In this document: piece by piece, positions 15,138-62,256 of the stretch
Layout: every line of letters starts with the position of its first letter
How positions within the stretch are numbered: position 1 is the first letter of the stretch
DNA from: an uncultured archaeon
GTDB taxonomy: Archaea > Thermoproteota > Bathyarchaeia > Bathyarchaeales > Bathycorpusculaceae
Reading direction: 5' to 3'
Assembly (NCBI GenBank): GCA_963782915.1
Contig: CAWALK010000012.1
Location: 64,001 to 128,000 of the forward strand
Length of the DNA stretch: 64,000 bases
Notes under the pieces: model-generated
The model's input: only the letters and a program-made list of their open reading frames with translations
The model's database searches: none
Told to the model about the DNA's origin: nothing
Position numbers and translations under genes: made by a program

Positions 15138-15224
15138 TGTATAGGGGATAGGGGTCTAGGCAGAGCAACAGCAGCCTACTCTATTTATCCTTTAAATAAG
15201 GGAGGGGGAGGTCTCTCTGAGCAG
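15138..15224 (+). repeat. Dispersed TATA/G-string repeat, two tandem copies (15138-15170, 15189-15224)
   Basis: TATAGGGGATAGGGG..GCAGAGCAACA and CCTTTAAATAAGGGAGGGGGAGGTC..GAGCAG. Confidence 0.75.
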
Positions 15225-15291
15225 ATAGGTCACGAAGCTATAGCATAGCGTTAATTCTATAAGATTAATTGTTATTCAAAAAATAAAAAAG

Positions 15292-17850
15292 CTAAAAATT
15301 AAGCTCCCAGTTTCCCTTCTTAACCAACTTGTACACTTCAAACCAAACTATACTGCCAAAGCCTGCTACAAAGCAAATCAACAAATTCACTGGCGATATA
15401 GGTATGAACATGAAGAGACTGCTTAGCGGCGGCAAATAAATCACCAGCAGTAGGGCGACTATTGCAAGCACTAGAATTTGCCAGAACGCTCTGTTTGGTT
15501 TGCGTAATATACCTACGATAGATTGACTCCATGAGCGGTTTGTAGCTATCAATGCTATATTTGCTAACACTATCGTTGCGAACGCCATTGTGCGCGCTGT
15601 ATCCAAGCCTAAACCTGCTGAACTAGCGTAAAGGTAAACTGCAGTTACAAGTACCAATGAAACGGTACCTTGCAGACCGGCGATTATTGCGGCTTTCATA
15701 TTGAATAGTCTTGAAGTTATACTTCTGGGTTTTCGCTGCATGACATCTTTTTCTTCTGATTCAGCCTCGAAAGCAGTTGTACATGCTGGGTCGATGATGA
15801 ATTCTAGGAATACGATGTGTAGTGGCAGTAGGATTAGTGGCCAACCAAACAGCACTGGCAGGGCTGAGAGTCCAGCGATTGGAATGTGCACTGCGAAGAT
15901 GTAGGCTATTGCTTTTTTGAGGTTGTCAAAGATTCGGCGGCCCATCTTTACTCCGCCTACAATAGAGCTAAAGTCGTCGTCTAGGAGCACTAATGTTGAG
16001 GCTTCTCTGGCGACGTCTGTTCCTCTTGCACCCATTGCGATGCCGATGTTTGCTGATTTGAGTGCTGGTGCATCGTTTACGCCGTCTCCGGTCATGGCTA
16101 CTATTTCGCCGTTTGCTTTGAAGGCATCTACAATTCGTAGTTTCTGCTCAGGTACGACTCGTGCAAAGATGTTTACGTTCTTGATTCTCTCTTTAAGTTC
16201 TTCGTTGTTCATTTTTTCGAGTTCTGGCCCAGTTATGATGTTCTCGGGATTTCGTAAGCTTATTTGTCGGCCGATATTCTGTGCCGTCAGTGGATAGTCA
16301 CCGGTGATCATGACTACTCTTATGCCTGCGTTGTAGCATTCCTTAACTGCGTCTGAAACGTTCGGTCTTACTGGATCGACGAAGCCAATTAAGCCTATGA
16401 ACTTGAATGAGAAATCATGCTGCTCTTTTGGAAGTTGTCCTTCTGCCGTGCTAAAGGATGTTTTAGCAACGCCTAAGACGCGCAGACCCTCTCCAGCCAT
16501 TTTCTGTACATTTGCAGAGATTTCTTTTGCTTCCGCCTCTTTTAGGTGGCATAAGTCGATTATCGCTTCAGGTGCCCCCTTAGCTGCGATGATATAATCA
16601 GTGCCGTTTGGTGAACCCCAAACGTTTGACATGGCTAGCAGTTTTTGGGATAGGGGGTATTCTTGGATTAGTTGCCAGTCAGAATGGACATGTTCGGTTT
16701 TTGCGAATTCACCTTCTACGAAGTTTGTGATGGCTTTTTCCATGGGGTCGAAGGGGTCTTTTTTGCATGCTAGCACACTGAATTCTACTAGCTCGTGGCA
16801 GCAGTCTGGTGGATTCTTGAGTGCTGAGTCGATTGTGTACATTTTGTTGTCTGTGCATAGTTTGGATACGGACATTTTGTTGAGTGTTAATGTACCTGTC
16901 TTGTCAACGCACAAGACTGTTGCTGATCCAAGATTCTCTATTGCGTGAGGCTGTCTTGTCAGCACATTCTTTTTAGACATGCGCCAAGCGCCGAGTGCTA
17001 AGAAGATTGTTAGCACAACTGGGAACTCTTCAGGCAGCATTGCCATAGCAAGGGTTACACCTGCCAGTATTCCTTCTATCCAGTCAAACCGTGTTAAACC
17101 ATAAACAATTATGACCAAGGCACAAAGTGATAGCCCGAAGATGGCAAAGTTGCGGACAAGCTTTGATACTTCAACTTTTAGTTTGGTATCATCGCGTTCA
17201 ACTTTTTGGAGAACTACGCCTATTTTGCCCATTTCAGATTTAGCGCCAGTAGATTTGACTAATGCAATGGCCTGGCCTTGCGTTACTAGTGTTCCCGAGT
17301 AGATGTATGGTTGGTCGTCTCCGCCTGGTCGCCAAGTTTGCTCTTCTAGTTTGCCAATGGCTTTTCGGACTGGAACTGATTCGCCTGTTAGAAGTGATTC
17401 ATCAACCATTAAATTGTTAGATGACAGTAATAGCGCGTCTGCTGGTACGCGGTCGCCTTCTGCTAGAATCATGATGTCGCCAGGCACGACTTCGCGGCCT
17501 GGGACCCGAATTTGTTTGCCGTCTCGTATTACTAGCGCTCGGGGGCTTGATAAATTCTTTAAGGCATCAAGGGCATTCTCTGTTTTTCTTTCCTGGAAAA
17601 TAGTTATGCCCATGACTACGAAAACAAAGCTTAGTAGAACTAAGCCTTCTGTCACTTCGCCTAGGATGAAGTATATGCTGCCGCTTGCGACGAGTAGGAG
17701 GAAAATTGGTTCCTTAATTACGCTTAATGCAATTTGAAAAACGCTTCGCTTCTTAGATGAGGGCAATTCATTGTACCCGTCGCTCTCCAATTTCTCTTGG
17801 GCTTCGTTGGAAGTAATTCCAGTTAAGGCATCAACGTCAATGTTATGCAT
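15292..17850 (-). CDS. Cation-translocating P-type ATPase (P2A, Ca2+-ATPase-like)
   Basis: TGES, LPEEFP, DKTGTLT, KGAPE, TGDGVNDAPALK. Confidence 0.92.
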   Translation of the reverse strand: MHNIDVDALTGITSNEAQEKLESDGYNELPSSKKRSVFQIALSVIKEPIFLLLVASGSIYFILGEVTEGLVLLSFVFVVMGITIFQERKTENALDALKNLSSPRALVIRDGKQIRVPGREVVPGDIMILAEGDRVPADALLLSSNNLMVDESLLTGESVPVRKAIGKLEEQTWRPGGDDQPYIYSGTLVTQGQAIALVKSTGAKSEMGKIGVVLQKVERDDTKLKVEVSKLVRNFAIFGLSLCALVIIVYGLTRFDWIEGILAGVTLAMAMLPEEFPVVLTIFLALGAWRMSKKNVLTRQPHAIENLGSATVLCVDKTGTLTLNKMSVSKLCTDNKMYTIDSALKNPPDCCHELVEFSVLACKKDPFDPMEKAITNFVEGEFAKTEHVHSDWQLIQEYPLSQKLLAMSNVWGSPNGTDYIIAAKGAPEAIIDLCHLKEAEAKEISANVQKMAGEGLRVLGVAKTSFSTAEGQLPKEQHDFSFKFIGLIGFVDPVRPNVSDAVKECYNAGIRVVMITGDYPLTAQNIGRQISLRNPENIITGPELEKMNNEELKERIKNVNIFARVVPEQKLRIVDAFKANGEIVAMTGDGVNDAPALKSANIGIAMGARGTDVAREASTLVLLDDDFSSIVGGVKMGRRIFDNLKKAIAYIFAVHIPIAGLSALPVLFGWPLILLPLHIVFLEFIIDPACTTAFEAESEEKDVMQRKPRSITSRLFNMKAAIIAGLQGTVSLVLVTAVYLYASSAGLGLDTARTMAFATIVLANIALIATNRSWSQSIVGILRKPNRAFWQILVLAIVALLLVIYLPPLSSLFMFIPISPVNLLICFVAGFGSIVWFEVYKLVKKGNWELNF

Positions 17851-18002
17851 ATACACCGTTCCTTTTTGCGGTATGGCGACAAACCCTATTGCCATTTAAT
17901 CGAGTTGAAGCCATCCACTTTTCATTGGTAACAGCGTACTTGAGAAGCGAAAATACTTAAAGGGCTTTTGTCACTGATATTTTTTCTCAGTGGTGAAAAA
18001 AA

Positions 18003-18812
18003 GTGAAAAGCGTTGAGCTACAAAAGGCACTTGAATCAATGGGCTTAACTGAATATGAGGCTAAAGCATACATTAGCCTAATCCAAATTGGTACCTCAAA
18101 CGCAGGTAACCTCAGTAAACTTACGGAGATACCACATTCAAAAATCTACGAAGTCCTTATTCGTCTCGAAAAAAAGAAACTAATTGAAGTCCAAAAAGGT
18201 AGACCGCTATTTTTCAAAGCAATAAAACCCTCCACTGCCATAGAAGGAATTGAAACCGAACTAAAAGACAACCTGCAGAATGAACTTTCCCAAAAAAAAA
18301 TTGACTTAGAAAGGCTCTATGAAAAAAAAATAGGACAAATATCCAAAGCTCACGGTGTGCTCGGCGAGTTGGATAATTTTTATGAGAAGAATGCAGCTAT
18401 CGAACCTTCTGAAGAATTCATTTGGACGATTCGAGGAAAAGAAAATTTGAATGGCCAAGCTAAAGAGATCATTCAAAGTGCGTCGGCAGAGGTGCGGTTG
18501 ATGATGCCGCTTGACGATTTCTCTGAGTTGTTATCGGCAATTAAGACTGCATCTTCAAGAGATGTTAAAGTTCAACTAGTAATTCATGAGTTAACTACGA
18601 GTGTGCGGAAGCTCAAAGACACCGTTGAGATTTTCTATGACAGGTCACCTTTGCCCACAAATTGCGGAATGATTTTGGCAGATGCCAAAAGGGGTATGTT
18701 TATTTCAGAAAATTCCACGATTGGATTTAAAGCATCCAGTAGGAGTGTTTTGATGGTTCTTGCCCAATTCTATCAGCATGAAGTTGAGGAATCGACAAGA
18801 ATAAAACTGTAG
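18003..18812 (+). CDS. TrmB family transcriptional regulator
   Basis: GLTEYEAKAY..IPHSKIYEVL..L; GRPLFFKA; WTIRGKEN. Confidence 0.88.
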   Translation: MKSVELQKALESMGLTEYEAKAYISLIQIGTSNAGNLSKLTEIPHSKIYEVLIRLEKKKLIEVQKGRPLFFKAIKPSTAIEGIETELKDNLQNELSQKKIDLERLYEKKIGQISKAHGVLGELDNFYEKNAAIEPSEEFIWTIRGKENLNGQAKEIIQSASAEVRLMMPLDDFSELLSAIKTASSRDVKVQLVIHELTTSVRKLKDTVEIFYDRSPLPTNCGMILADAKRGMFISENSTIGFKASSRSVLMVLAQFYQHEVEESTRIKL

Positions 18813-18837
18813 TCAGGGCATAATTCCACCCCCTAAA

Positions 18838-18869
18838 TATAAATAAGGGAGGGAGGTCACTCAGAGCAG
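18838..18869 (+). repeat. Dispersed TATA/G-string repeat copy
   Basis: TATAAATAAGGGAGGGAGGTCACTCAGAGCAG. Confidence 0.75.
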
Positions 18870-19069
18870 GTGGAGGCTTTCAACATAGCAGCCGTCCTGT
18901 TTGTGGTTTATTGCACAAGCAACCTGCAATCCAGTTAAAACGTAGAATCCAAAACGCAATCTTTAACCCGACTTATTGGTGGTTGTTGTGTATAGGGGAT
19001 TTTCGGCAACAACTACCTTACAAAAATAGAAAACCAACAAAAAAAAATAAAATAAGAAAGGAAAAAAAA

Positions 19070-20249
19070 TTATTCTTTCTTGGCACACTCAAGAGCTTTC
19101 TTGAGTATCTCTGCCTTGTCGCATCTTTCCCATGGGAATTCGACGTCGTCTCGACCGAAGTGGCCGAAGCATGCGGTTTTCTTGTAGATTGGTCTTAGCA
19201 GGTTGAGTGTGTCGATGATTCCGCGTGGTCTCATGTCAAAGTTGGCTTTGACGAGTTCGAGTATTTGCTCATCTGGGAGCTTGCCTGTCTCGTATGTGTT
19301 AACTAAGCACTGAGATTGGCTGTGCGACACCGATGGCGTAGCTGATTTGGACTTCGCATTGCTCTGCTAAGCCTGAAGCAACTACGTTTTTGGCGATGTA
19401 ACGTGCCATGTAGCAGCCGCTGCGGTCAACTTTTGAGGGGTCTTTGCCGCTGAAGCATCCGCCGCCGTGGCTTCCAACTCCGCCGTATGTGTCAACGATG
19501 ATTTTTCTGCCTGTTAAGCCGGAGTCTGCGAGGGTTCCGCCGATGACGAATCTGCCTGTGCCGTTAATGACATAATTTACGTCTTCTGATAACAGGTTTG
19601 CTGGGATAACGTATTTGATTACTTTTTCGATGATTTGCTTCTTTAGAACTGCATCTTCGACTGATCCGTTGTTTTGTGCGGCAATAACTACTGCTTTGAC
19701 GCATTTTGGTTTGCCGTTTTCGTATTCAACGGTGACTTGGGATTTGCAGTCTGGACGTAGATATGGCATAGTGCCGTTGTGGCGGAGTTCTGCTAATCTT
19801 TTTACTAGTCTGTGAGATAGCAGAATTGGCAGTGGCATGAGTTCTTTGGTTTCATTGCTTGCGAAACCGAAAACCATACCTTGGTCGCCAGCGCCCTGTT
19901 CTTTGCCGTTAGTTGCGTCAACACCCATGGCGATGTCTGGGGACTGCTCAGTTAAGGAAACAAGGATACCGCAGGTTTCCCAGTCTAAGCCGTCTTTGGC
20001 ATTGTCGAAACCGATTTCTTTTAGTGTATTTCGTACGATGCTTGGGATGTTTACGTATGCACAGGTTGTGATTTGGCCTGTAATCATAACTGTTCCCTGC
20101 ATTACGAGGGTTTCGCAGTCAACGTGTGCTTTGGTGTCGTGGGAGAATATGGCGTCTAGGACGCTGTCAGAGATTTGGTCTGCAACTTTGTCTGGGTGAC
20201 CTTCTCCGACTGATTCGGATGTGAACAAATATTTTCCGTTTCTTCTCAT
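19070..20249 (-). CDS. metK: Bacterial/eukaryal-type S-adenosylmethionine synthetase; +1 frameshift near 19303
   Basis: [50 protein letters not shown], after the shift [16 protein letters not shown]. Confidence 0.93.
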
Positions 20250-20406
20250 TTCAGTTCTCTCTTCCGTTCGGTAAGTTGTGCTTAGCTTACTTGCCGTTTT
20301 TCTTATATGGTTTTCTGCATAAAATATTCCAATCGGAATATTGGTTGTTGGGTTAATTCTTGTTTTCCAATACTGTTTTAAGGATAAATGGGCACACAAA
20401 CAAGTG

Positions 20407-20791
20407 ATGGCTATGAAAAAAGCAGTTGTAAGCCCAGATGCGCCTAAACCCATTGGACCCTACAGTCAAGCTGTGCAAGCAGGCAATTATCTCTATGTTT
20501 CGGGGCAACTTGCTATCGACCCCAAAGAGGGCAAGCTCGTTGCCGCAGACATCGCAGTGCAAACACGTCAGGTGATGGAGAACCTCAAAGCAATCCTGAC
20601 AAGCCGCCAACTACAGCCTAAAAGACATCGTCCAAACCACAGTTTACCTCTCATCCATGACGCATTTCGAAGGCTTCAACCGTGAATACGCCAAATACTT
20701 CACTGCAGACTACCCAGCACGCGCCACAGTCGCCTGCGAACTAAAAACAGGTGCACTCCTAGAAGTTTCAGCAGTAGCCTACAAAGAGTAG
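20407..20791 (+). CDS. ridA: RidA/YjgF family enamine deaminase; +1 frameshift near 20601
   Basis: [16 protein letters not shown]; after the shift [25 protein letters not shown]. Confidence 0.88.
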
Positions 20792-20852
20792 CAGCTTTTG
20801 CTTCGATAAGTTATAAGTATCTAGCCAACGCTAAATATCAACAGGCATAACC

Positions 20853-21479
20853 ATGGCGGCATCGTTGAAAAAATTTATGCAGCAGCTTTCAGGGAAAAAA
20901 GGTCCTGGACCCTCGATGTCTTTCACGATTTTCCATGTATTCTATGCTTTGCAGCTTATGGCACAGAAGCCGATTGGAAGGAACAAGTTGGCTGAGCAAC
21001 TTAATGTTGGCGACGGCGCAATACGAACAATAATTAGCAGGTTGCGGGAGGCTGGTTTGATTGAAACCTCTAAAGCAGGCTGCAATTTAACGGAAAAAGG
21101 CAGGGATGTTTGGTGCCAGTTTGAAATGATTTTTCCCAAAGAAACCGAATTACCCAAATCCGAATTAAACCCCTGCGAATTCAACCATGCATTCTTAGTA
21201 AAGAACTGCGCCCAAAAAGTCCAGTCAGGCATCGACCAAAGAGACGCAGCAATAATTGCGGGAGCACGCACCGCTTTAGTCATTGTTTATCGCAATGGCC
21301 ACTTATGCATCGAATCCATCAGCGACGACATAGAAAAACAGTATCCAAAAGCCGCAAAACAACTTTTGGAGCAGCTTGAGCCCAAAGAAAACGATGCCAT
21401 CGTTGTGGCCGGGGCTGAATCGGCTTTGAAGGCCAAGCGTGGCGCTTTTGCCGCCAGCTGGTCACTCATCAGCGCCTAA
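20853..21479 (+). CDS. Archaeal winged-helix protein (DUF4443/DUF2111-like)
   Basis: IGRNKLAEQLNVGDGAIRTII..L; GIDQRDAAIIAGA. Confidence 0.7.
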   Translation: MAASLKKFMQQLSGKKGPGPSMSFTIFHVFYALQLMAQKPIGRNKLAEQLNVGDGAIRTIISRLREAGLIETSKAGCNLTEKGRDVWCQFEMIFPKETELPKSELNPCEFNHAFLVKNCAQKVQSGIDQRDAAIIAGARTALVIVYRNGHLCIESISDDIEKQYPKAAKQLLEQLEPKENDAIVVAGAESALKAKRGAFAASWSLISA

Positions 21480-21483
21480 AAGT

Positions 21484-31817: not shown

Positions 31818-32087
31818 ATGGTCTACACGCACATGTGCTGGAGTGATAATGTTGGGTATAGCTTAACGGACGCTGTTTTTCCTTATGAAGTTTTAGCTAA
31901 CTTTGAGGGTTTATGGATTTTGGGGTTTTGACCTGACTTGGGCTTATCAGGTTTTGTTTTTCTAGTAGTAGTTGAAGGCAGAAACCCGTTATACCCTTCT
32001 TCTTCCAGCGGCTTGTAGTTTGCAGTCTATTTTTGTTTTTGCGTTTGGTGGGCGTTGCAGGTTGGTTGTGGAGACTTGTGCAAGTTG

Positions 32088-41483: not shown

Positions 41484-41649
41484 ATAGCAAAGTGGCAGTA
41501 AGTCTATTGCTGGGCTTGATTTGGGAAGAGTGTGTTATCGCCAAACCCTTGAACAATGGGCGTACCTGTGAGGTTGGGTTAAGCTGCAAAAATATTTAGT
41601 CACTATACCCAAACTGAAATCTGACTTATGAGTCCGACTGGATGCTTAT

Positions 41650-41682
41650 TATAGGGGATAGGGGGTAGCTGGCAGAGCAACA
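41650..41682 (+). repeat. Dispersed TATA/G-string repeat copy
   Basis: TATAGGGGATAGGGGGTAGCTGGCAGAGCAACA, matches 15138-15170. Confidence 0.75.
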
Positions 41683-41875
41683 AATCCCCGACTCAAGTAA
41701 AGGTGGGAAATCGGTCTTCTCTGCTGAGAAGTCGTTTGGTTCCAACATAATTTTTGCTAACCAGTCTGCGGCAAATGCGCACTCAAAACAAGCTACACCC
41801 AACAATCCTCAAAACAAACAGCTACCACTCCAACGAATGCAGCTTCTTAAGCTTTCCTGACCAGCACTTGTGCAG

Positions 41876-41912
41876 CCTATAAATAAGGGAGGGGGTAGGT
41901 CACAGAGAGCAA
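41876..41912 (+). repeat. Dispersed TATA/G-string repeat copy
   Basis: CCTATAAATAAGGGAGGGGGTAGGTCACAGAGAGCAA. Confidence 0.75.
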
Positions 41913-41927
41913 ACCTGTCTTTTGGTG

Positions 41928-42004: not shown

Positions 42005-42688
42005 GTGAACCAAAAAATTGTAGCCTCTATCCTCTTCGTTATTCTTGTGGCCTTAACTGTTTCAGTGGGAACCCAAAATGTCGCTGCTCAATCAGGCGGA
42101 ATCCCCTATTCAAGTGGGCTGTATCTAATCTCGCCATTAAACACCACCTACACCTCTAACATGTTAACACTCAATGTTTACTTCGATATGGGCATACAAA
42201 CCAAACTAAACTACAGCCTTGACGGCGGCGAACACAGCGGCGACATTCCCTTAACGTACCTTAACAACAGCGAAATAATGTATATCTCAAACTATCAGGG
42301 CATAGTGCCACTCTCACAGCTCTCCGATGGCTCACACGCCCTAACAATAACCGTGGATGCGGAACTCAACGATTTCCATGGAGCAAACCCGCCTGGTGCA
42401 CCATTCAAAGCAACTAACGCTGAAGGCACCAACTTTTCAGCGATTTGGATTCATACAATCTATTTCACGATAGATACATCAAAAGCAACTCAGAATCCAA
42501 CGGTTTCAGCTACTCCAACTCCAACTTTGATAGAGTCGACAAACCAAACCACCACAACACCAACGATGCAGGCGCCTGCAGAGGAACCCCAACAGTTAAC
42601 CTCATTATTACCCATCATAGCGGTTGCCGCAGTCGTTGCCTACATAGCCGTAATCGCTGTACTCATTACAAGAAAAAAATGGAACTAA
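42005..42688 (+). CDS. Secreted, C-terminally anchored Ig-like surface protein
   Basis: Signal peptide; ISPLNTTY, YSLDG, LSDGSH, YFTID; Thr/Pro linker; TM + RKK. Confidence 0.75.
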   Translation: MNQKIVASILFVILVALTVSVGTQNVAAQSGGIPYSSGLYLISPLNTTYTSNMLTLNVYFDMGIQTKLNYSLDGGEHSGDIPLTYLNNSEIMYISNYQGIVPLSQLSDGSHALTITVDAELNDFHGANPPGAPFKATNAEGTNFSAIWIHTIYFTIDTSKATQNPTVSATPTPTLIESTNQTTTTPTMQAPAEEPQQLTSLLPIIAVAAVVAYIAVIAVLITRKKWN

Positions 42689-44211: not shown

Positions 44212-45270
44212 CTAAATCGGTATAAACCAGAATACCCGTACCAAGACGAGAACGGCAACACAGAGAAGCCCCCACAAAATGATGGTTACGTCGCGTATCC
44301 GCAGCGCCCCTACTATTTTGTCGCCAGTTAACGGTTCCTGAGCATCTCCGAGGATATACTGGCCGGGTTTCTCTAGTTGGATGCGCAATGCGCCGGCGAC
44401 GGCTGCCATGGGCCAACCGTGGTTGCGGCTTGGGGTTTTTTTGTGGTCCCGTCGTGCCATTTTCCAAGCATTCTTTGCGTCCATTCGAAGGATTGCTGCT
44501 GCAACAATCATTAGCAAAGCCGTTAATCTTGTCGGAATAAAATTTACAAAGTTGTCCAGGTTAGCGCTGAACCAACCTGTGTTGATGTGTTCTTTTGTTT
44601 TGAACCCCACCATGCCGTCCAAGGTGTTGATGGCTCGGAAGGCGATTGCTCCTGTGACGCCAAACAGGGCAAAAGACATCATGGGTGAGAGTTTGAAGTC
44701 GATGAGGTTCTCGGACATGGATTCGATTACTGCACTGCCCATTTGTGCTCCGTTAAGGTTTCTTGAGTCTCGCCGTGAGAAATGAGCGTACTTTTTTGCT
44801 TCGGCGACATCTTGGGCGTCGATGGCTTTTGCTACAGATTTAGCCCAGTCTGTTTCAAGTTTGATGCAGATGGTCATTTTGAGCAGTATGATGCCGATGA
44901 CCGCGTAGATGAGTATGTTGAGGGCAAATGGCAGATAGGTGTAGATTGCCCATAACCCAAAGAATGTTGGCAACGCAAAGGCTGCAATCACCGTTAAACC
45001 AAGCAATACCCCGAGGAACTTTTCGATTCTGGAGTTTGGATTCTTGAAATAGGGCTCGATTTTTTTGGTAAAATTCCCCATGACCACGGTTGGATGCAGC
45101 TTAAACACCCATCTGTCAGGATAATTCGGTGAAGGATCGCCTAAAATTAAGTCCAACACTATAGCAAGAACAAGCATCGCTATTGCGACTGCTATGTTTA
45201 GGGTGTTTTGTCCCAGCCAAGAGTACAGGTCGAGCATTGCTTCGATACTTGGATGCTCACTTAATATCAA
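44212..45270 (-). CDS. cbiB: Adenosylcobinamide-phosphate synthase CbiB
   Basis: LDLILGDP..HP, ESMSEN..D, FRAINTLDGMVG, PTRL, TPSRNHGWPMAAVAGAL. Confidence 0.9.
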   Translation of the reverse strand: MILSEHPSIEAMLDLYSWLGQNTLNIAVAIAMLVLAIVLDLILGDPSPNYPDRWVFKLHPTVVMGNFTKKIEPYFKNPNSRIEKFLGVLLGLTVIAAFALPTFFGLWAIYTYLPFALNILIYAVIGIILLKMTICIKLETDWAKSVAKAIDAQDVAEAKKYAHFSRRDSRNLNGAQMGSAVIESMSENLIDFKLSPMMSFALFGVTGAIAFRAINTLDGMVGFKTKEHINTGWFSANLDNFVNFIPTRLTALLMIVAAAILRMDAKNAWKMARRDHKKTPSRNHGWPMAAVAGALRIQLEKPGQYILGDAQEPLTGDKIVGALRIRDVTIILWGLLCVAVLVLVRVFWFIPI

Positions 45271-45304
45271 TTACGGTTAACACGTTAAAAGAAGCCGCTT
45301 GTGT

Positions 45305-45389
45305 GTCACCGACCTATCCCCCATCTATTTATAGTGACATGGAGGCGTCGTTTGCTGCTTTGCCAACCTATCCCCTCCCTTATATATAG
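45305..45389 (-). repeat. Dispersed TATA/G-string repeat, two tandem copies on the minus strand
   Basis: Reverse complements read CTATATATAAGGGAGGGGATAGGTTGGCAAAGCAGCAA and CTATAAATAGATGGGGGATAGGTCGG. Confidence 0.7.
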
Positions 45390-45490
45390 ATTCAAGGGCA
45401 GGTTCAACCCGCTTAACCCAAACAAAACTTTGCTCTACACACGGATTTTCGGTTTGTTTTTTAAGCTCAAACACCGCTATACCTCAATAG

Positions 45491-52334: not shown

Positions 52335-52344
52335 GTGAAGCGGT

Positions 52345-53433: not shown

Positions 53434-53468
53434 TTCTTACTAAAATTTAAGGCTAAAACTGTTTTGTG

Positions 53469-53503
53469 CCTTTAAATAAGGGAGGGGAGGTAGTTGCTGA
53501 GCT
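53469..53503 (+). repeat. Dispersed TATA/G-string repeat copy
   Basis: CCTTTAAATAAGGGAGGGGAGGTAGTTGCTGAGCT. Confidence 0.75.
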
Positions 53504-53518
53504 GGTCATGTGGTTTGC

Positions 53519-54640
53519 TTATTGAAGCTGCTTAGCCATCACTTTCTTAATTGTTTCGACAAGTGTTTTGTTGTCTTTGGCTGAGCGGACGGTTATGCGG
53601 ATGTAGCTGTCATCCATGCCCATAAAGGTGCAGCAGTCGCGGACTAAGATGCGTTCTTTGGCGAGTAGTTCTTTGAGCATGGTTGAGGTTAATTTGCGGT
53701 TTAAGATTTTTACGAGCAGGAAGTTGGTTGTTGATGGATAAACTTGGAAGCCTTCGATTGTGGCTAAGTCTTTGGCGAGTTCTGCTCGGTTTTTGGTGAT
53801 TGTTTCTTTTGTGCTAGCTATGAATTCGGTGTCGCTAAACGCTGCTAATGTGGTGGTGTTTACTAAGCCGTTGATGCTCCATGGTTGACGCACCGTCTCC
53901 AGCTTATCAATCAAGTTAGTCGCAGCAATAGCGTAGCCAAAGCGTAAGCCTGCTAAACCGTAGAATTTGGTAACTGACCGGATAACAAAGAGGTTCTCGT
54001 AGTCTTTGACCATGCCGGCAACGGTGTTTTTGTCACCTTCCTCTGCAAATTCGATGTAGTTTTCGTCTATGCTAAAGATGATGTCGCGTTTTTGGCAGAA
54101 CTCCACGAGGTCCATGACTTCTTCTTTGGTGTATAGTCTGCCTGAGGGGCTGTGTGGGTTGCAGATGCACATGATTTTTGTGTCATCGGTTACTGCAGCC
54201 TTGATTTTCTCGTGATCCATCGAGAAATCTGGTGGTAGCTGGACGAAAGTGACTTCTCCGCCGACTCGCAGTGACGCTTTCTCGTATTCGGAGAAGGATG
54301 GCACTGGAATTACTGCTTTGAAAACTTGAGGCAATGCCTCAGTTATCATGTAGATGAGTTCGATTGAGCCGTTGCCGAGCAGAATGTTTTCTGCTTTCAC
54401 GCCGTGACCAACGTATTTGGCTATGGCTGATTTGAATTCAACTGGGTTTGGGTCAGGATAGAATTTGATTAATCGGGCATTTTGTTTGACGGATTCCACG
54501 GCTTTCGGTGGAGGTCCCATGAAGTTGATGGGTCCGCTGAATTCAAGCACTTCTTCAAGTGGAATGCTATGTTTTCTGCTGAAACCCCAAATATCGCCAC
54601 CATGACTAACGAATCTGCGTTTTTTACATGTGCTTGACAT
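53519..54640 (-). CDS. cobD: L-threonine-O-3-phosphate decarboxylase (HisC-like PLP enzyme)
   Basis: HGG..., FS..IN..GPP, YPDP, GNGS.ELI, CNP..PSG, RSVTKFYGLAGLRFGY, RDC.TF.GM. Confidence 0.85.
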   Translation of the reverse strand: MSSTCKKRRFVSHGGDIWGFSRKHSIPLEEVLEFSGPINFMGPPPKAVESVKQNARLIKFYPDPNPVEFKSAIAKYVGHGVKAENILLGNGSIELIYMITEALPQVFKAVIPVPSFSEYEKASLRVGGEVTFVQLPPDFSMDHEKIKAAVTDDTKIMCICNPHSPSGRLYTKEEVMDLVEFCQKRDIIFSIDENYIEFAEEGDKNTVAGMVKDYENLFVIRSVTKFYGLAGLRFGYAIAATNLIDKLETVRQPWSINGLVNTTTLAAFSDTEFIASTKETITKNRAELAKDLATIEGFQVYPSTTNFLLVKILNRKLTSTMLKELLAKERILVRDCCTFMGMDDSYIRITVRSAKDNKTLVETIKKVMAKQLQ

Positions 54641-55178: not shown

Positions 55179-55261
55179 TAAGTTCAAACTTTCCCGTTCA
55201 ATTGCTTACAAGGTTGGGGGAGCCAAACTTTATAAGGTCTTCCATTGGAGGTTTACATAAA

Positions 55262-55960: not shown

Positions 55961-55964
55961 AGCG

Positions 55965-56954
55965 ATGGCCCTCGACGCTTGTCCCAAAGTCTCAATCATA
56001 GTAGCGTCCTATAACAGCGCTGACACCATCGGGGAATGCCTCAAATCTATTCTGGCCTTGGATTACCCAGCGGGTTACATTGAAGTTATCGTTATGGACG
56101 GCGTCAGTAAGGATGCCACAGTTAAAATCGCTGGGCAGTTCCCCATCAAAGTTGTTTCTATCCAGCTTAATGCGCCAGCCGCTTACAATTATGCCCAGAA
56201 AATCGCTGTTCACCCTATCTTAGGTTTTATCGATGCAGACGCCAAAGTGGAACGGGATTGGCTAAAGAAGCTTGTACCTCATCTCAGCGAACCCCAAGTG
56301 GCAGGCGTCAGCGGCAGCATCGAAACCTGGAACCAAGATAATCAGTGGGCTCGGAGCATCGGTTATGAACTAAAAAACCGATACCGCCGAATCGGCAAAT
56401 ACACCGGGCGCATCGCCACCATGAATTTGTTGCTAAAGAAAGCGGTGGTTGAAGAGGCGGGTGGTTGGGATGAAAAGCTGCCCAGCCAATACGACACGGA
56501 TTTTGGGTTCCGAATGGCGTCCAAAGGCTATAAAATCGCCTATGAACCATCAGCGGTTTGTTACCATTTCAATCGCCCAACTTTGAAGGCGTATTATCGC
56601 CAGCAACTGCAGTATGGCAAGAACACGCTCAAGCTGTACTTTAAGCATGGGCACTTGGCTAAGGGCGACGAGATTACCGATGTGGGTATGAATATTCAGC
56701 CCTTATTGCTGTTGACGGTTGTTGGGTTGTTTATTGTGGGCATTATTCCTTTGTTGAGGCTGCTTTGGGTCGGTTCAGCGCTGATTTTATTGGGAATGTT
56801 TGTTTACTTTGTCTATTCCGCAGCTAAAATATCCGCCAAATTCCGTGACTGGTCCGCAATGCGACTGGTCGTACTCTATTATGTGCGCTCTGCCGCATGG
56901 TTCGTCGGCGCAGTCACCACCACGTTGCGTTATCTAACAAGGAGAAACAACTGA
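55965..56954 (+). CDS. GT2 glycosyltransferase with C-terminal TM helices
   Basis: VSIIV..YN, FIDAD, GGWDE, RQQLQYG. Confidence 0.88.
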   Translation: MALDACPKVSIIVASYNSADTIGECLKSILALDYPAGYIEVIVMDGVSKDATVKIAGQFPIKVVSIQLNAPAAYNYAQKIAVHPILGFIDADAKVERDWLKKLVPHLSEPQVAGVSGSIETWNQDNQWARSIGYELKNRYRRIGKYTGRIATMNLLLKKAVVEEAGGWDEKLPSQYDTDFGFRMASKGYKIAYEPSAVCYHFNRPTLKAYYRQQLQYGKNTLKLYFKHGHLAKGDEITDVGMNIQPLLLLTVVGLFIVGIIPLLRLLWVGSALILLGMFVYFVYSAAKISAKFRDWSAMRLVVLYYVRSAAWFVGAVTTTLRYLTRRNN

Positions 56955-58147
56955 TGACCAAAGTCTGCTTCGTCTCACCCGAATACTGGCCGCTAACAGG
57001 CGGCACAGGCAGCTACGTCTACTACCTCAGCAACGAACTCCTCAAAAACGGCTACAACATCCACGTTGTAACCGGCAGCAACCAAACCCAAGACATCCAC
57101 GTAAACCCCCAACTCGACGTCTCCTTCCTAAAAAGCCCCAAAATGCCCGCCGTCAAATCATTCATCCTCGCAGGCAACAGCAACCGTAAACTCCAAAGTA
57201 TCAAAAAAACCGCCAAAATAGACATCATGCATCCCCAGTTGCCGCTTACACCTAACTTTGCGGTTCCCCCCAACTACGGCAAAACGCTTGTCTGCACCGT
57301 CCACTCCACATGGAAGGGCGAAGCAGAAGCCATCAGAGGCGAACCCTTTATGCGGTTAAACGCTAATGAGAAAGTCCTCGTCAGCTTAAACCCGATGCTG
57401 CGTTTCTTTGAGGAAAGCATGATTCATCGAGCCCGAAAAGTTATAGCTGTTAGCGAATTCACCAAGTACGAACTCACAAAATACTACAAAATCCCCGCTC
57501 GCAAAATCAAGGTTATTCACAACGGCGTCGATATCCACAAATTCCAGCCCGCCGCTGACAAACGTAAAATCAAAGCAGAATTGGGCTTCAACCCTGACGA
57601 CATCGCCATAGTTTCTGTTGGGCGACTCTATGCACGCAAGGGCCTCTTTACGTTGATCGAGAGCATGCCTGCCGTCGTCAAGCGATTCCCCAACGCCAAA
57701 TTCATCATATCCGGCAAGGGGCAGAGCGACGAAATGAATAAACTTATCGCTCACGCCACAAAACTGGGCGTAATTAACAACATAGTCTTCACTGGCTATT
57801 ACCCCGACAAGAAACTGCCCAAACTCTACCAAGCTGCCGACGTATTTGCCTTCTCAACCTTCTATGAGCATCATCCCTTTGCCGTATTGGAGGCGCTCTC
57901 AACAGGGTTGCCCGTGGTGACGACCACCGTTGGGGGGATTCCAGAGACGATTGAGAGTGGCAAGAACGGATTCTTGGTCAAGCCTTTCGATGAGAAAGCC
58001 TTCGCGGACAGAATCCTCTACTTACTAGAGCACAGAGCCTTTGCATCTGAGATGGGTGCAGCCGCAAGGAAAACCGTTGTTGAGCAACTGGACTGGCGCA
58101 TAGTAGTTAAGGATGCAATGAAAGTCTACGATCAAGCTCTCAGTTAA
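56954..58147 (+). CDS. GT4 glycosyltransferase
   Basis: GG...YVYYL, IHNGVD, VGRL..RKG, E.HPFAVLEALSTG.P; TGATG overlap. Confidence 0.9.
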   Translation: MTKVCFVSPEYWPLTGGTGSYVYYLSNELLKNGYNIHVVTGSNQTQDIHVNPQLDVSFLKSPKMPAVKSFILAGNSNRKLQSIKKTAKIDIMHPQLPLTPNFAVPPNYGKTLVCTVHSTWKGEAEAIRGEPFMRLNANEKVLVSLNPMLRFFEESMIHRARKVIAVSEFTKYELTKYYKIPARKIKVIHNGVDIHKFQPAADKRKIKAELGFNPDDIAIVSVGRLYARKGLFTLIESMPAVVKRFPNAKFIISGKGQSDEMNKLIAHATKLGVINNIVFTGYYPDKKLPKLYQAADVFAFSTFYEHHPFAVLEALSTGLPVVTTTVGGIPETIESGKNGFLVKPFDEKAFADRILYLLEHRAFASEMGAAARKTVVEQLDWRIVVKDAMKVYDQALS

Positions 58148-58211
58148 CCAACGATACTCACCTGTTTGTCAATCTTTAAAAGAGAAACCACCTACCTTTA
58201 CTTTGATTAAA

Positions 58212-58505
58212 ATGCAGACCATAGAGAAGCTAAAAGCGACTTTGGCTTCACATAAAGAGGAACTAGAAAATAACTATAAAGTAAAAGAAATTGGAATCTT
58301 CGGTTCCTACGTCAGACATGAACAGAACAAAAACAGCGACGTAGACGTTTTAGTTACCTTTACTGAAACACCCGACCTCTTCCAGTTTGTAGAACTTGAA
58401 AATTACTTAAGTGACCTTTTAGGGGTTAAAGTTGACCTCGTCATGAAGGAAGGAATTAAACCTCGCCTCAAAGAGAGGATTCTTAGCGAGGCAGTCTACG
58501 TTTGA
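58212..58505 (+). CDS. mntA: MNT minimal nucleotidyltransferase antitoxin
   Basis: IFGSYVRHEQNKNSDVD (GSX10DXD). Confidence 0.88.
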   Translation: MQTIEKLKATLASHKEELENNYKVKEIGIFGSYVRHEQNKNSDVDVLVTFTETPDLFQFVELENYLSDLLGVKVDLVMKEGIKPRLKERILSEAVYV

Positions 58506-58843
58506 GGGACTTCCAAGTCTACATAGAAGACATAATCGACGCCATCGACAGTATCGAAACCTACACTAAAGACTTAACCTACACTGACTTTGTCAGCGAT
58601 AAAAAAACCGTTGATGCGGTAATTAGGAATTTTGAGATCATCGGTGAAGCAACAAAGCAATTACCGCTGTCAGCAAGGCAAGGGTGCCCTAATGTACCTT
58701 GGAGAGAGATGGCGGGGATGCGCGACAAATTAATCCATGGATACTTTGGCGTTCAACTAGATGTTGTTTGGAAAACCATTAAAGAGCGCCTGCCTACAGT
58801 GCGACTTTTGATGGTTGAAGTTTTGGCAAAAATGAAAGAGTAG
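58502..58843 (+). CDS. hepT: HEPN (DUF86) RNase toxin
   Basis: EIIGEA, RDKLIHGY (RX4HXY); 4 nt overlap with MNT. Confidence 0.88.
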   Translation: MRDFQVYIEDIIDAIDSIETYTKDLTYTDFVSDKKTVDAVIRNFEIIGEATKQLPLSARQGCPNVPWREMAGMRDKLIHGYFGVQLDVVWKTIKERLPTVRLLMVEVLAKMKE

Positions 58844-58850
58844 CAAATCT

Positions 58851-59804
58851 CTAAGCTATCTGCGTTGGTTCTTTTCGGTAGGTTTGAGTTACCCTCTGGA
58901 ACAGGTGCACGATGTCAAGCGAGCAGAAGAAGAATTTTGTCAGGTATTCGTGTTGGTAGATCATCATTTGGGCTTTTACGGGTAGGTCGATTCTGGGTGG
59001 TTCAAAGCGGTGCTCGACTTCTTTGACGGGTAAGCCTTCGACTTGGATTGCGTCGCCTTCGAATCCGGTTTTGTCTGCGATATATTTGAGGTAAGTCTGT
59101 TTCCAATCCAGCATCATTACTTTGGCGGCGGTGATGTCTACTGCAAGGGCGTCGTTGCCTGTTAGGAACAGGTCCATTTTGACGGGTTTGCCCTTTGTGG
59201 GTCCGTTGCCTTCGATGCCTATGCGTGCATCCATGATTGTGAGCGCCGGTTTGAAAAGAGTGTATAAGCGGTAGAAGACTTCTGGCAGGTAAGGATGTAG
59301 GTAGATGCGTCGGTTGCTGGGTATGCATCCGAACAAGTTTTTGATGGCGCCGCTGTAAGCCATGAATTCATGCGTCTTCATCAAAGGCAGGTCGACGACG
59401 GCGTCGGCGTCTATGATGGTTTTGGGTAGGTATAGCCGTTTTAGTGGCGAATTGGTTTGGAATTTGACTTCGACCACTTTGTCTTCAGAGAGGTTGATGA
59501 CTTCTCCGCCTGCCGCTTTAACAGCATCCTGAACGCCAGTTTTCTCAAACGCTGTCCAGCAGGGATAGTTAAAACCGTTAGATTCGCCCACGACGACTTC
59601 GCTGTTGCCATCGCGGAGTAACTCGACGACTTGGCGCATGACTTCGGGACAGGTAACTACACCCGGTAAGTATTCGGGATGGCTGAGGTTGGGTTTAATG
59701 TAAATCCGCTTTTTCCCACGAAGCCCCGCTTTAGCAACCGCCTCTTTAATGATGCCGCTAATGTCCTCTTCGGCACGATAAATCTTAACCGCATTAGCTG
59801 CCAT
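58851..59804 (-). CDS. DUF362 family protein
   Basis: IKPNL, T.PEV, LPLMKTH, GAIKNLFG, GNGP, DALAVD. Confidence 0.85.
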   Translation of the reverse strand: MAANAVKIYRAEEDISGIIKEAVAKAGLRGKKRIYIKPNLSHPEYLPGVVTCPEVMRQVVELLRDGNSEVVVGESNGFNYPCWTAFEKTGVQDAVKAAGGEVINLSEDKVVEVKFQTNSPLKRLYLPKTIIDADAVVDLPLMKTHEFMAYSGAIKNLFGCIPSNRRIYLHPYLPEVFYRLYTLFKPALTIMDARIGIEGNGPTKGKPVKMDLFLTGNDALAVDITAAKVMMLDWKQTYLKYIADKTGFEGDAIQVEGLPVKEVEHRFEPPRIDLPVKAQMMIYQHEYLTKFFFCSLDIVHLFQRVTQTYRKEPTQIA

Positions 59805-61236
59805 TGGCGATTTTCACTCCATTAAGACAGCCGGGATCACCGTTTAAGGTGTCACCGTTATGGTAAGCAGCAGAGCGTGCTCGGCATCCGCCGCAAATGA
59901 ACTTGTAATCGCATTTACTGCAGGAGCCTTTGAGGTTGGCTCGGTTGCGGAAAGCATTGAAAAGTGGCGCATTAAGCCAGATGTCTTTGAATGTACGTTC
60001 TTTGAGGCTGCCCACATTTTCGGGTAAGAAAACGCAGGGGCGAACGTCGCCTTGTGGTGAAATTGCGCAGTAGAGTCTGCCTGCTCCGCATCCGCCGATG
60101 AATTCGCCTAGTGGGACGGCTTTTTTGGTGACTTTGACTGTTTGCATGTGGGCTAATGCCATGGTGACTTCGCCGGTACCTGAATCACCCTGACATTGAG
60201 CTGCTACACGCGCCAATTGGGGTGCCGTGGCGAGGATGGTGGTTTTGCACCCCGACGACATACGGTTAAGGAGGTACCTCATGACTTCCTCTCGTTCCTG
60301 TGGTGAGAGGTCTTGGTCCGCGTGGGCTTTGCCGCGTCCAGCGGGGATGAAGTTGAAGTAGGTGAAGCGTTCAACGTGGAGCTGCTCAGCCAAATCGATG
60401 ATTGCCGGGAGTTCCGCCATGTTGTTTTTGCCCACGGTGGTGGCTATGCAGGCGCATATGTCTGCGTCAATGCAGTTTTTCAGCCCTGCCACAGCTTTGT
60501 CATATGCTCCGGGAACGCCTCGGAACTCATCATGGGTTTTAGCTGTTGCCCCATCGATGCTGATGTCAACATAGTTAACGCCTGATTCTTTGAGTTTAAC
60601 TGCGTTTTCTTTGGTTAGTAGGGTGCCGTTTGAGGCTAGTGAAATGTAGAGACCTTTGTCTGAGGCATACCGTGCGACTTGGAAGAAGTCCTTTCGGGTA
60701 ATGGGTTCGCCTCCGCTAAACGCCAACGCCGTAACGTGAGCCTCCGCTAGTTGGTCAACGACTGCTAACGCTTGTTCGGTGGTTAACTCGTCGGCATCTG
60801 GTTCGCCGCTGTTGGAGTAGCAGTGTTTGCAGCGGAGATTGCATTTGTGTGTGAAATCCCAAACTATAAGAAACGGCGCTACAAGTGACATGGGTTTTTT
60901 GATGCCATAATGCTCGAAAGATTCAACTAAGTTGAGGACCGCATTGCGTGCATATCGGTCTGTAAGTAGCTTCTCGACTTTTGCCCGCTTGAAACCCAAC
61001 GCTCGCCGTAGGAACTCGATCCAGAAGGCGATGATCTGCGAGTACAAACCGCTGCATTTATCGCAGTGCCGATCGGTTTTGCCGCCATAGTCATCCAACG
61101 CAGCCTCCAACACAGTTCGGCCGCAAGCAGGACACTTTTTGAGGGAAAGCTGGAGCATCTTTTTGGTCATTGGCATAGAGACGATGCTGTTCCAGAATGT
61201 ATCGTAGCTGAGGATGCTCATTGCGGGTTTCTCCAA
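59794..61236 (-). CDS. Radical SAM/SPASM protein with N-terminal Cys-pair extension (possibly GMGT-synthase-like)
   Basis: CPAC..CDKC, APFLIVWDFTHKCNLRCKHCY, FIGGCGAGRLYC..PC, CSKCDYKFICGGCRAR. Confidence 0.88.
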   Translation of the reverse strand: MEKPAMSILSYDTFWNSIVSMPMTKKMLQLSLKKCPACGRTVLEAALDDYGGKTDRHCDKCSGLYSQIIAFWIEFLRRALGFKRAKVEKLLTDRYARNAVLNLVESFEHYGIKKPMSLVAPFLIVWDFTHKCNLRCKHCYSNSGEPDADELTTEQALAVVDQLAEAHVTALAFSGGEPITRKDFFQVARYASDKGLYISLASNGTLLTKENAVKLKESGVNYVDISIDGATAKTHDEFRGVPGAYDKAVAGLKNCIDADICACIATTVGKNNMAELPAIIDLAEQLHVERFTYFNFIPAGRGKAHADQDLSPQEREEVMRYLLNRMSSGCKTTILATAPQLARVAAQCQGDSGTGEVTMALAHMQTVKVTKKAVPLGEFIGGCGAGRLYCAISPQGDVRPCVFLPENVGSLKERTFKDIWLNAPLFNAFRNRANLKGSCSKCDYKFICGGCRARSAAYHNGDTLNGDPGCLNGVKIANGS

Positions 61237-61332
61237 GCGGTCTGATACCTAAATGGAGATGTGCCCGATGTAAAGATTTCTCTAAACGCTTGGAGTCTGC
61301 TTGATGTTTTGAAAAGTGCTGGCTTGATATTT

Positions 61333-61764
61333 TTAGCCTATTCCAAGCTGCCTCATCATACCTACAGCATCGTAGAATAATCGTTCTTCTTGGATTTCGC
61401 CGCCTTTCCAATGCGCTACCGTGCAGAACTCTAACTTAGCAGTTTTATGTGTCGGTTGGATGGTTTGACCATTGGGCATCTTCATAGGTCCAATCATTGT
61501 TGCGGTCCAATCCGCCACCGAACAGGTGTAGTCGCCTTGCCCAAACAAGATTTTGTAGGGGTTGTTGACGAGTTTGTTGTCGAAGGTTTTGAAGAATTCG
61601 ACTGATTCTTTAAAATGGGCTTCGCGGCCTCTGGTGGGTTCCGGTTGTCCGGGCCAGTAGACGGCGACGTTTTCTGCATGGCGTTTCTTGAAGGTATCCC
61701 ATTCTTGGTCGTTCCATGAGTCGTCAAGAGTTTTCATTAATTCGAGGTTTGGATTTGTGCTCAT
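61333..61764 (-). CDS. SnoaL/NTF2-like ester cyclase family protein
   Basis: DDSWN, PTRGREAH, FGQGD, GTM-like ATMIGP, I.PT.K, EERLFYD..GMM.QLG. Confidence 0.85.
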   Translation of the reverse strand: MSTNPNLELMKTLDDSWNDQEWDTFKKRHAENVAVYWPGQPEPTRGREAHFKESVEFFKTFDNKLVNNPYKILFGQGDYTCSVADWTATMIGPMKMPNGQTIQPTHKTAKLEFCTVAHWKGGEIQEERLFYDAVGMMRQLGIG

Positions 61765-62218
61765 AAAAATCACTGGCAAAGCTGAGACTGGGGAAGCTAT
61801 AAAAAAGTATGCTGGTATCCAGTTGCAGATACGATTTTACGATGGCAGTCTTGAATATTGGATTGGCGTTTTGTTGGTTGTCTTGTTTTTCTACAGTATG
61901 TTGTTGCTGAAAACCGCCTATACACAACAACAACCAGCAGACGTTGCAGGCGTTTGCGTTTTAGCTTCAGCCTCTGGGTTGGGTTGCGGGTTGTTGAGGC
62001 GTTTTCTAGAAGCAGGGCAGGCGGAAATTTTTAATCTACTGATAGAGCGGGCTGTAAGCGGTTGAGAGGTAGCGTGTCCCAAGGTAGCCTGAAGTTGAAA
62101 ACCAAACCGCTGCAAACGTGCAATAAGAATAAGCTACACTTAACAAGCGTTGTTTATTCACGGCAAATACTCAATGAATGCAAACAGCCCCAACAACGCT
62201 AAGACCACAAGCGTCTAT

Positions 62219-62256
62219 CCTATAAATAAGGGAGGGGGTACCTCGGCAGAGCAGCA
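62219..62256 (+). repeat. Dispersed TATA/G-string repeat copy
   Basis: CCTATAAATAAGGGAGGGGGTACCTCGGCAGAGCAGCA. Confidence 0.75.

Follow-up and report, generated by a model that had tools for sequence, protein, structure and literature searches.

The window analyzed here, a stretch of 64,000 nucleotides at positions 64001-128000 of contig C12 in a 25-contig, 3.28-Mb bathyarchaeal assembly of 45% G+C, harbors nine copies of a short intergenic repeat of ~55 bp, hereafter the cassette. Its characteristic features are a TATA box, a string of G residues behind it, and a start-like motif at a nearly constant distance. Cassettes are dispersed in large numbers across the genome, form strictly head-to-tail arrays, and are often found directly 5′ of a second, non-coding repeat of ~200 nt (the unit). 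In its sequence, the cassette is built like a complete archaeal core promoter minus the A-rich B recognition element (BRE) and plus a G-run after the TATA box. Cassettes may quite possibly be portable, self-contained promoter modules that fire non-coding transcription and do not serve the neighboring protein genes; this reading, held tentatively, is the best single account, given a geometry like that of a promoter, arrays that are strictly head-to-tail, and a 56:1 linkage with the unit.

Bathyarchaeia are abundant and almost uncultured archaea, and we know of no experimental work on their transcription signals. The 16S rRNA of the host is matched best by the archaeal model (1479 bits).

Family size and anatomy

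The 13-mer AAATAAGGGAGGG, searched with at most one mismatch, matches the window six times, at 15194, 18841, 41881, 53474, and 62224 on the plus strand and at 45373 on the minus strand. The expected number is 0.08, and none of 100 shuffles gave six matches. Genome-wide, the same search finds 114 occurrences, and among non-homopolymer 14-mers, TAAATAAGGGAGGG ranks first with 68 copies. A profile made from the copies returns 205 matches in all, with clear members still at E values of 1-10. A strict rule, which requires a TATA-like hexamer followed by 13 nt with at least eight G and no C, yields 229 copies, whereas its mirror control with C in place of G yields 11; a looser rule yields 354.

Conservation covers ~50-55 nt and comprises a weak TGCA..GT, the TATA box, the G-string, a variable stretch of 8-10 nt, and the start-like motif. 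The TATA box, TWTAWATA, is present in every strict copy by definition of the scan. The bases before it read ..GAGCC, ..TATCC, or ..CAGTC; no purine- or A-rich BRE is found there, as had been claimed for the window copies. On the other strand, a C-run occupies the BRE position. The downstream motifs are distributed over the 228 anchored copies as follows.

AGAGCAAC: 104 of 228
GAGGTAGGTAG: 78 of 228
GAGAAAAAA: 5 of 228
Other: 41 of 228

Measured from the start of the TATA hexamer, the distance is 26-27 nt to AGAGCAAC in 103 of the 132 copies having that motif and 27 nt to TGAGGTAGG in 36 of the 45 having the latter (these group sizes differ from those of the 228-copy grouping because the matching order differed). 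The spacing to GAGCAAC or TGAGG is constant although the intervening sequence varies between subtypes. Transcription in archaea starts at a pyrimidine-purine step ~25-30 nt past the TATA box, and the spacing observed here puts such a step in about that position.

All 42 cassette pairs within 300 nt of each other have the same orientation (head-to-tail), and none the opposite. The spacings of neighboring cassettes peak at 50-59 nt, with a second peak at 170-199 nt. When the cassette was inspected for a palindrome or stable hairpin of the repetitive extragenic palindromic (REP) kind, only short, subtype-specific palindromes (e.g., TACCTCTGAGGTA) were seen by eye.

Five genes for TFB (TFIIB-like) are present in this genome, at C22:43.5k, C11:29k, C18:239k, C20:139k, and C20:144k. 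A TFB paralogue dedicated to the cassettes was considered and rejected: TFB counts of 5, 2, 2, 5, and 3 in G000, G065, G070, G061, and G074 are unrelated to cassette presence. Because TFB gene number does not track the cassettes, there is no indication of an initiation factor dedicated to them.

No part of the cassette is better conserved than the G-string, and certain G-runs, GGGAGGGGG, GGGGATAGGGG, and GAGGTAGGTAGG, recur. Together with the regular 50-59-nt arrays, this might speak for a site acting at the DNA level, in which the G-string, possibly as a two-tetrad G-quadruplex beside a TBP site, would be bound by a nucleoid, Orc1/Cdc6-like, or regulatory protein and the array would serve as a platform. 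Such a function appears improbable: no protein partner has emerged, the TFB counts are as unrelated to cassette presence as stated above, the conservation of the G-string is inflated by the scan definition, and no strand or replichore polarity of the cassettes was seen by eye along contig C12. For the nucleoid or segregation protein site named in the original prediction, the evidence points neither way.

Of note, the 13-mer search also caught a separate five-copy element, CTCAGCCCCAG...(A)AACTAAAAAAGGGAGGGAAAG..., which is unrelated to the cassette (C5:27692, C12:250500, C15:85538, C22:224817, and C24:140558).

Copies in the window

Sequence inspection of six loci bears out all nine copies claimed by the original prediction, and all nine are intergenic, as it had stated. 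They include the TATAGGGGATAGGGG variants at ~15140 and 41650 and a degenerate copy at 45331 on the minus strand. The strict scan recovers seven of the nine; the two TATAGGGG variants, which it misses because the hexamer rule is not satisfied, were confirmed by eye only. The cassettes and units of the window are listed below, with the means of detection in parentheses and ORF denoting an open reading frame.

15130..15176, plus strand: cassette of the TATAGGGG-ATAGGGG variant with GCAGAGCAAC at 15160-15169, first of a head-to-tail pair (by eye)
15180..15232, plus strand: cassette with TTTAAATA and GGGAGGGGGAGG, directed toward the 3′ end of a P-type ATPase gene at 15292-17895 on the minus strand (13-mer search, strict scan)
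18826..18875, plus strand: cassette with a C-run on its upstream side and a weaker minus-strand mirror copy using the same TATA (13-mer search, strict scan)
18876..19045, plus strand: CA-rich non-coding unit with terminal hairpin (GGTTGTTGTG...CAACAAC), right after the cassette and abutting the metK 3′ end (nhmmer match 18848-19039, sequence, folds)
31954..32084, minus strand: second unit of the window, incomplete and covering model positions 13-143 (nhmmer)
41640..41686, plus strand: cassette of the TATAGGGGATAGGGGG variant with GGCAGAGCAAC (by eye)
41862..41915, plus strand: cassette (GCAGCC-TATAAATA-AGGGAGGGGGTAGG...GAGAGCAAAC), 125 nt before an ORF start at 42005 (13-mer search, strict scan)
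45349..45400, minus strand: cassette (TATATATA-AGGGAGGGGATAGG...GGCAAAGCAGC), 5′ of cobD and on its strand (13-mer search, strict scan)
45298..45338, minus strand: degenerate cassette (TATAAATAGATGGGGGATAGG), 61 nt before the cobD start, with a TTTTAAC box between cassette and start codon (strict scan)
53458..53510, plus strand: cassette occupying most of the 85-nt gap of two convergent genes, directed into the 3′ end of an aminotransferase gene (13-mer search)
61873..62041, minus strand: third window copy of the non-coding unit, with an insertion sequence (IS)-type end (AATCTACTG) at 62033-62041, overlapping a spurious ORF at 61688-62065 (nhmmer)
62205..62258, plus strand: cassette (CTATAAATA-AGGGAGGGGGTACC...GGCAGAGCAGC), directed toward a small ORF at 62323-62616 on the minus strand (13-mer search, strict scan)

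The element had been described as pointing into the 3′ ends of oppositely oriented genes. For the P-type ATPase gene and metK, this holds; between the copy at 18838 and the true end of metK (~19070) lies one 200-nt repeat unit. For cobD, the description fails, the minus-strand copies at 45386 and 45331 being located upstream of the 5′ end of the gene (44212-45270, minus strand) and on the same strand. The copy at 53471 is directed into the 3′ end of the aminotransferase gene (53519-54640, minus strand), which the earlier description had left unnamed.

At 18826-18850, a C-run and a G-run flank one common TATA (CCACCCCCTAAATATAAATAAGGGAGGG), amounting to back-to-back cassettes on opposite strands; a similar arrangement is found at C22:319505. 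The adjacent metK, which encodes a bacterial-type S-adenosylmethionine synthetase (19070-20453, minus strand), is split into two ORFs. The ORF at 19299-20453 breaks off within the C-terminal domain, of which it covers profile positions 1-79 of 138, and the ORF at 19070-19330 contains the rest (79-138). The split near 19300-19330 is a frameshift or an assembly error.

The linked non-coding unit

The unit is 170-200 nt long, has 173 profile matches genome-wide, and is CA-rich on the strand of the cassette. Its first bases are CTGCTTGCGG..CTCCACAACCAGCCTGCAACC; at its other end stands a hairpin, GGTTGTTGTTGTG..loop..CAACAACAAC, with GAAAAA behind it. A strict cassette is located directly 5′ of 56 of the 173 units in the same orientation and of one in the opposite orientation; counted from the other side, 67 of the 229 cassettes have a unit behind them. 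The same cassette-plus-unit arrangement occurs in another species, G007, beside an orthologous gene. Units lie close to gene 3′ ends on either side and ~50 nt or more from gene starts, and the gene upstream of the unit is co-oriented in 91 of 147 cases (p = 0.005).

No conserved reading frame was found in the unit on either strand. The units and their CA-rich tracts were considered as genes and rejected, since the longest open frames occur in all three frames of both strands, stops being rare in CA- or GT-rich sequence. Because no frame is kept on either strand, the long ORFs over the unit are composition artefacts; the spurious ORFs at 61688-62065 and 18911-19198 of the window are examples. 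A small membrane protein on the GT-rich strand was likewise discarded, its frame being broken by indels between copies (by eye).

A consensus structure for the whole unit was sought and abandoned, as a first RNAalifold run gave none and a better alignment gave only a 9-bp hairpin. In an alignment of 42 units, this hairpin is the only structure predicted; its pairs are nearly invariant, and the covariation term is -0.26. Single-sequence folds are weak, with z values of -1.73 on the cassette strand and -0.51 on the other. Among the one-sided changes in the seven core pairs of the hairpin, five are G-U or U-G and none are A-C when read on the cassette strand, which lends weak support to that strand being the functional one. 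The covariance models of Rfam 15 gave no match at gathering score over the window, none at E ≤ 1 over 18700-19100, and none at E ≤ 0.1 over L123, L026, and L025. Outside this genome, the unit is multi-copy in G005, G007, G008, and G024, whereas a search of 16 genomes belonging to other families yielded none.

Position relative to genes

By our own gene calls, 223 of the 229 strict copies are intergenic. In 114 cases the gene ahead of the cassette has the same orientation, and in 109 it is convergent, which corresponds to random orientation. Sorted by type of intergenic region, 110 of the 223 copies are in tandem, 56 in divergent, and 57 in convergent regions, for which region length alone predicts ~126, ~59, and ~38, respectively. 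When a stricter gene set is used, none of 123 cassettes comes nearer than 60 nt to a co-oriented start codon; one is found at 60-80 nt, two at 80-100 nt, and 14 at 100-150 nt. Among the 18 copies at 55-150 nt, eight have an ordinary A-rich BRE and TATA box between cassette and start codon (by eye), and in those eight cases the gene has a promoter of its own, with the cassette just outside it. The 40 tRNA genes and the 16S rRNA gene have ordinary promoters, with a GAAA-type BRE and TTTAAAT or TTTATAT and with no G-string.

Because of these position counts and the G-string-free tRNA and rRNA promoters, the cassette is neither the generic promoter of the organism nor the promoter of its neighbors. 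That cassettes are ordinary promoters of the adjacent protein-coding genes is accordingly very improbable. The presence of a TATA box and the two window copies upstream of co-oriented genes (41878 and 45331) would fit such a role, but the empty 60 nt before start codons already contradict it, as do the excess between convergent genes and the separate BRE and TATA box of downstream genes.

Mobile elements and cassette mobility

Numerous small contigs nearly duplicate stretches of large ones, with identities of 86-98% (C5/C22, 98%; C14/C20, 94-96%; C2/C17, 96%; C8/C12, 97%). They represent either strain variants, from a second strain binned together, or recent paralogous segments; they call for caution with the copy counts and are usable for indel analysis.

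A 377-bp segment, C17:25567-25945, is cleanly absent from C2, where the flanks are 96% identical. The insert starts with CAGTAGATCAAAAAA, ends with TGATCTTTG(ATA), and has a TTAA duplication on its flanks. It contains a partial unit, a CA-rich stretch, a cassette, and a hairpin. At least one cassette has travelled inside a small element with IS-type ends.

The same ends are found on an IS of 1.13 kb, which is present in three copies (L123-L125) of 96-99% identity.

C15:305348-306478: 1.13-kb ISH3-family IS
C23:82970-84099: 1.13-kb ISH3-family IS
C20:263008-264163: 1.13-kb ISH3-family IS, left end eroded

By its transposase, termini, and duplication, the element belongs to the ISH3 family. Its two ORFs match the ISH3 transposase model NCBIfam NF033541 over positions 2-181 of 298 (226 aa, E = 4.5e-36) and 232-296 (127 aa, E = 1e-12); both remain under the 225-bit cut-off of the model because the transposase gene is split. 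The ends are CAGTAGATC...GATCTACTG with CAGT termini, and the C15 and C23 copies are flanked by a 4-bp TTAT/ATAA duplication. An IS630/Tc1-type partner, considered when the duplication was first read as TA, was rejected: no DDE_3 domain was found, the duplication measures 4 bp, and the transposase resembles that of ISH3.

Three of three IS copies break a cassette at one and the same point, CCTTTAT[ATAA]-IS-[ATAA]GGGAGGGGG, in flanks that are otherwise unrelated. Among 291 loose matches to the IS end, 11 have a G-string after 4 nt, compared to ~1 expected, and ~9 of these are convincing. Because of the three identical insertions and the IS ends before G-strings, the TATA box of the cassette is regarded as a preferred landing site of the IS. 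No description of such IS specificity for a TATA/G-string cassette was found in literature searches.

The original prediction had also offered the cassettes as the ends of transposable elements of the miniature inverted-repeat kind (MITEs). This option is not upheld, the mobile-element ends found here being a different motif (CAGTAGATCAAAA); elements with CAGTAGATCAAAA ends insert in the cassette TATA box or hold a cassette internally. Units bounded by CAGTAGATC-type ends at both sides amount to two convincing pairs, C12:238975-239158 and C23:146395-146634, besides the C17 insert, and so most units are not demonstrably MITEs.

Distribution among relatives

When the 21-mer core TAWATAAGGGAGGGGGTAGGT was scanned across one genome per prokaryotic species, 23 loci were found, 19 in eight metagenome-assembled genomes (MAGs) of Bathyarchaeia and four in one MAG labelled Methanocella, which makes a bathyarchaeon the most probable host. 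The sequence WATAAGGGAGGGG occurs 100 times here, compared to 0-2 occurrences per genome among 24 congeners and among 16 genomes from other genera of the order. In further congeners, the wider WATARGGGRGGGG is found 95 times in G065, 52 in G070, 17 in G050, and not at all in G061 and G074. The family is patchy within one genus, and full-text literature searches turned up no account of repeats of this kind in Bathyarchaeia.

At locus 53471, the cassette is missing in G061, G074, L044, and L045, the latter two being the closest metagenome contigs (90% protein identity), whereas in G065 and L048 a cassette stands behind the same aminotransferase stop codon. The aminotransferase gene is as close to that of this genome in G061 and G074 as in G065, despite the absence of WATARGGGRGGGG from the former two. 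The flanks of this locus are too diverged between species to define the edges of the cassette.

In 400 kb of G065, two of 16 strict cassettes have flanks that are syntenic here, compared to 71 of 153 control intergenic sites (Fisher p = 0.015). Restricting the comparison to sites with both flanks matched gives two of 11 cassettes versus 71 of 109 controls (p = 0.006).

Interpretation of the cassettes

What the sequences show is how many copies there are, how they are built and spaced, their confinement to intergenic DNA, the head-to-tail arrays, the link with the unit, the patchy distribution, a single clean insertion polymorphism, and the targeting by the IS. From this, we infer that transcription would initiate at the cassette and would run in the TATA-to-G direction, as well as the way in which solitary cassettes would spread. 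Among the roles listed in the original prediction, a REP-like element and a portable promoter for antisense or small RNAs fit best, as the cassettes are intergenic, free in orientation, lineage-specific, fixed in spacing, and often located 5′ of a unit. In the proposed mechanism, firing of the cassette would be non-coding and would, in about a quarter to a third of cases, produce a 170-200-nt CA-rich RNA ending in the conserved hairpin; the remaining cassettes would give short or antisense transcripts. The family would have proliferated as repetitive DNA in a small number of species within one Bathyarchaeia genus. At least some of this spread would have come from transport inside a small non-autonomous element with the ends of the ISH3-family IS, which in turn prefers the cassette TATA box as its landing site.

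Several observations weigh against the promoter reading. Unlike tRNA and rRNA promoters in this genome, the cassette has no A-rich BRE, and from the TATA box to the putative start its sequence is rich in G+C, an unusual composition where DNA has to melt. The conservation of the G-string is partly circular, inflated by a scan rule that requires G, and the fixed TATA-to-motif spacing could come by descent without selection. Read in the proposed direction, the unit is not followed by an oligo-T terminator. Solitary cassettes have no terminal inverted repeats, target duplications, or ends of their own, only a weak TTGTTG...CAACAA symmetry. No empty sites for them were found in the near-duplicate contigs; with the cassette present in both contigs at each of the nine duplicated loci, nothing points to recent movement of cassettes alone. 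The position statistics rest on gene calls from a crude ORF caller. Moreover, the downstream (GAGCAAC) end of the cassette lies within a few bases of the stop codon of the convergent gene in 18 of 105 cases, an abutment that, together with the cassettes after the same aminotransferase stop in two species, would also fit a 3′-end function on the other strand.

On this opposite strand, the C-run and TTATTTATAG would act as a 3′-end or terminator module of the upstream gene, or the C-run would occupy the BRE position of a reverse promoter. A cassette behind the aminotransferase gene here, in G065, and in L048 is in line with the former. Either version carries a slim probability: close positions behind a co-oriented stop number nine of 119, and the preference directly after the stop is just 18 versus nine (binomial p = 0.12); there is no run of five or more T; the conserved TGCA on that side is ~13 nt from the TATA box, too near for a start site; genes on that side start within 60 nt in only four of 106 cases; and both the unit linkage and the wobble changes of the hairpin favor the G strand.

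A strong rival to the portable promoter is a selfish or structural intergenic repeat that is not transcribed, comparable to a REP, a bacterial interspersed mosaic element (BIME), or a BOX-like mosaic. Its TATA likeness would be unused, it would persist because it is harmless between genes, and it would serve at most for recombination or as an IS landing pad. Being targeted by an IS is also known of bacterial REP sequences (Tobes and Pareja 2006, PMC1525189). The random orientation to flanking genes (114 versus 109), the abutment of gene 3′ ends with avoidance of the 60 nt before gene starts, the modular and mosaic composition, the patchiness among species with depletion at syntenic sites, and the missing BRE are all expected of such a repeat. 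However, the 26-27-nt spacing is strict across sequence-diverse subtypes, the arrays are head-to-tail at 42:0, and the unit is coupled in one orientation at 56:1, each of which exceeds the needs of a neutral repeat; in addition, the cassette has no REP-like palindrome. A non-transcribed repeat is possible but on the unlikely side.

The portable-promoter reading can be extended to a new archaeal promoter class, in which no upstream BRE is needed and a G-rich element after the TATA box fixes direction. Such promoters would be mobile, their head-to-tail batteries would drive CA-rich small RNAs, and an ISH3 transposon would home to their TATA box as a safe haven. The G-rich element can be likened to the downstream TFIIB element of eukaryotes. 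Taken as a whole, this extended proposal is doubtful.

Relation to known systems and significance

The class I intergenic repeats of halovirus HF2 are 58 bp long and carry promoters according to reporter assays (Russ, Pfeiffer, Dyall-Smith 2021, PMC8707807). They share with the cassette a short length (~55-58 bp), an archaeal intergenic location, an AT-rich promoter-like core, and many sites. They differ in belonging to a virus genome and in having positions conserved among related viruses, whereas the 229 or more cassettes are chromosomal, are not placed before genes, have no BRE, contain a G-string, and are known here from sequence alone.

Putative mobile promoters have been described in prokaryotes, with Correia elements, ERICs, and REPINs named as promoter-bearing repeats (Nijveen, Matus-Garcia, van Passel 2012, PMC3575422). 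Like these, cassettes are highly similar promoter-like intergenic sequences at unrelated loci, common to some relatives. In contrast to the bacterial examples, which lie upstream of non-homologous genes, cassettes avoid the gene promoter position and have an archaeal host.

With REP/BIME elements, which are known as IS targets (PMC1525189), cassettes have in common an extragenic location, abundance, a modular and mosaic build, frequent placement at gene 3′ ends, and specific IS insertion sites. Unlike them, the cassette forms no palindromic hairpin; its core is a TATA box and G-run with strict strand asymmetry and head-to-tail order.

The ISH3 family has CRGT termini, a direct repeat of 4-5 bp, and a length of 1225-1500 bp (De Palmenaer, Siguier, Mahillon 2008, PMC2266710). 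The 1.13-kb element agrees with that description in its CAGT termini, 4-bp AT-rich duplication, and ISH3-like transposase, and departs from it in being slightly shorter and in having its transposase split in two ORFs. The IS is a neighbor and user of the cassette and not the cassette itself. Comparable extragenic mosaic repeats are also represented by the BOX elements of pneumococci.

If cassettes fire, this lineage would contain hundreds of extra BRE-less promoters for non-coding and antisense RNA and would possess a means of moving promoters. The long-standing question of what fixes the direction of an archaeal promoter would then become directly testable. If they are silent, they would constitute the first REP/BIME-like mosaic repeat system with a dedicated IS in Bathyarchaeia and would provide markers for genome rearrangement and strain typing. 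In either case, gene callers should be used with caution, as the CA/GT-rich units create long false ORFs.

Independent of the cassettes, GATC is strongly under-represented genome-wide, with 3817 occurrences where the sequence length predicts ~12800; CGATCG and GCGATCGC are under-represented too. This deficit hints at GATC-directed restriction or methylation pressure.

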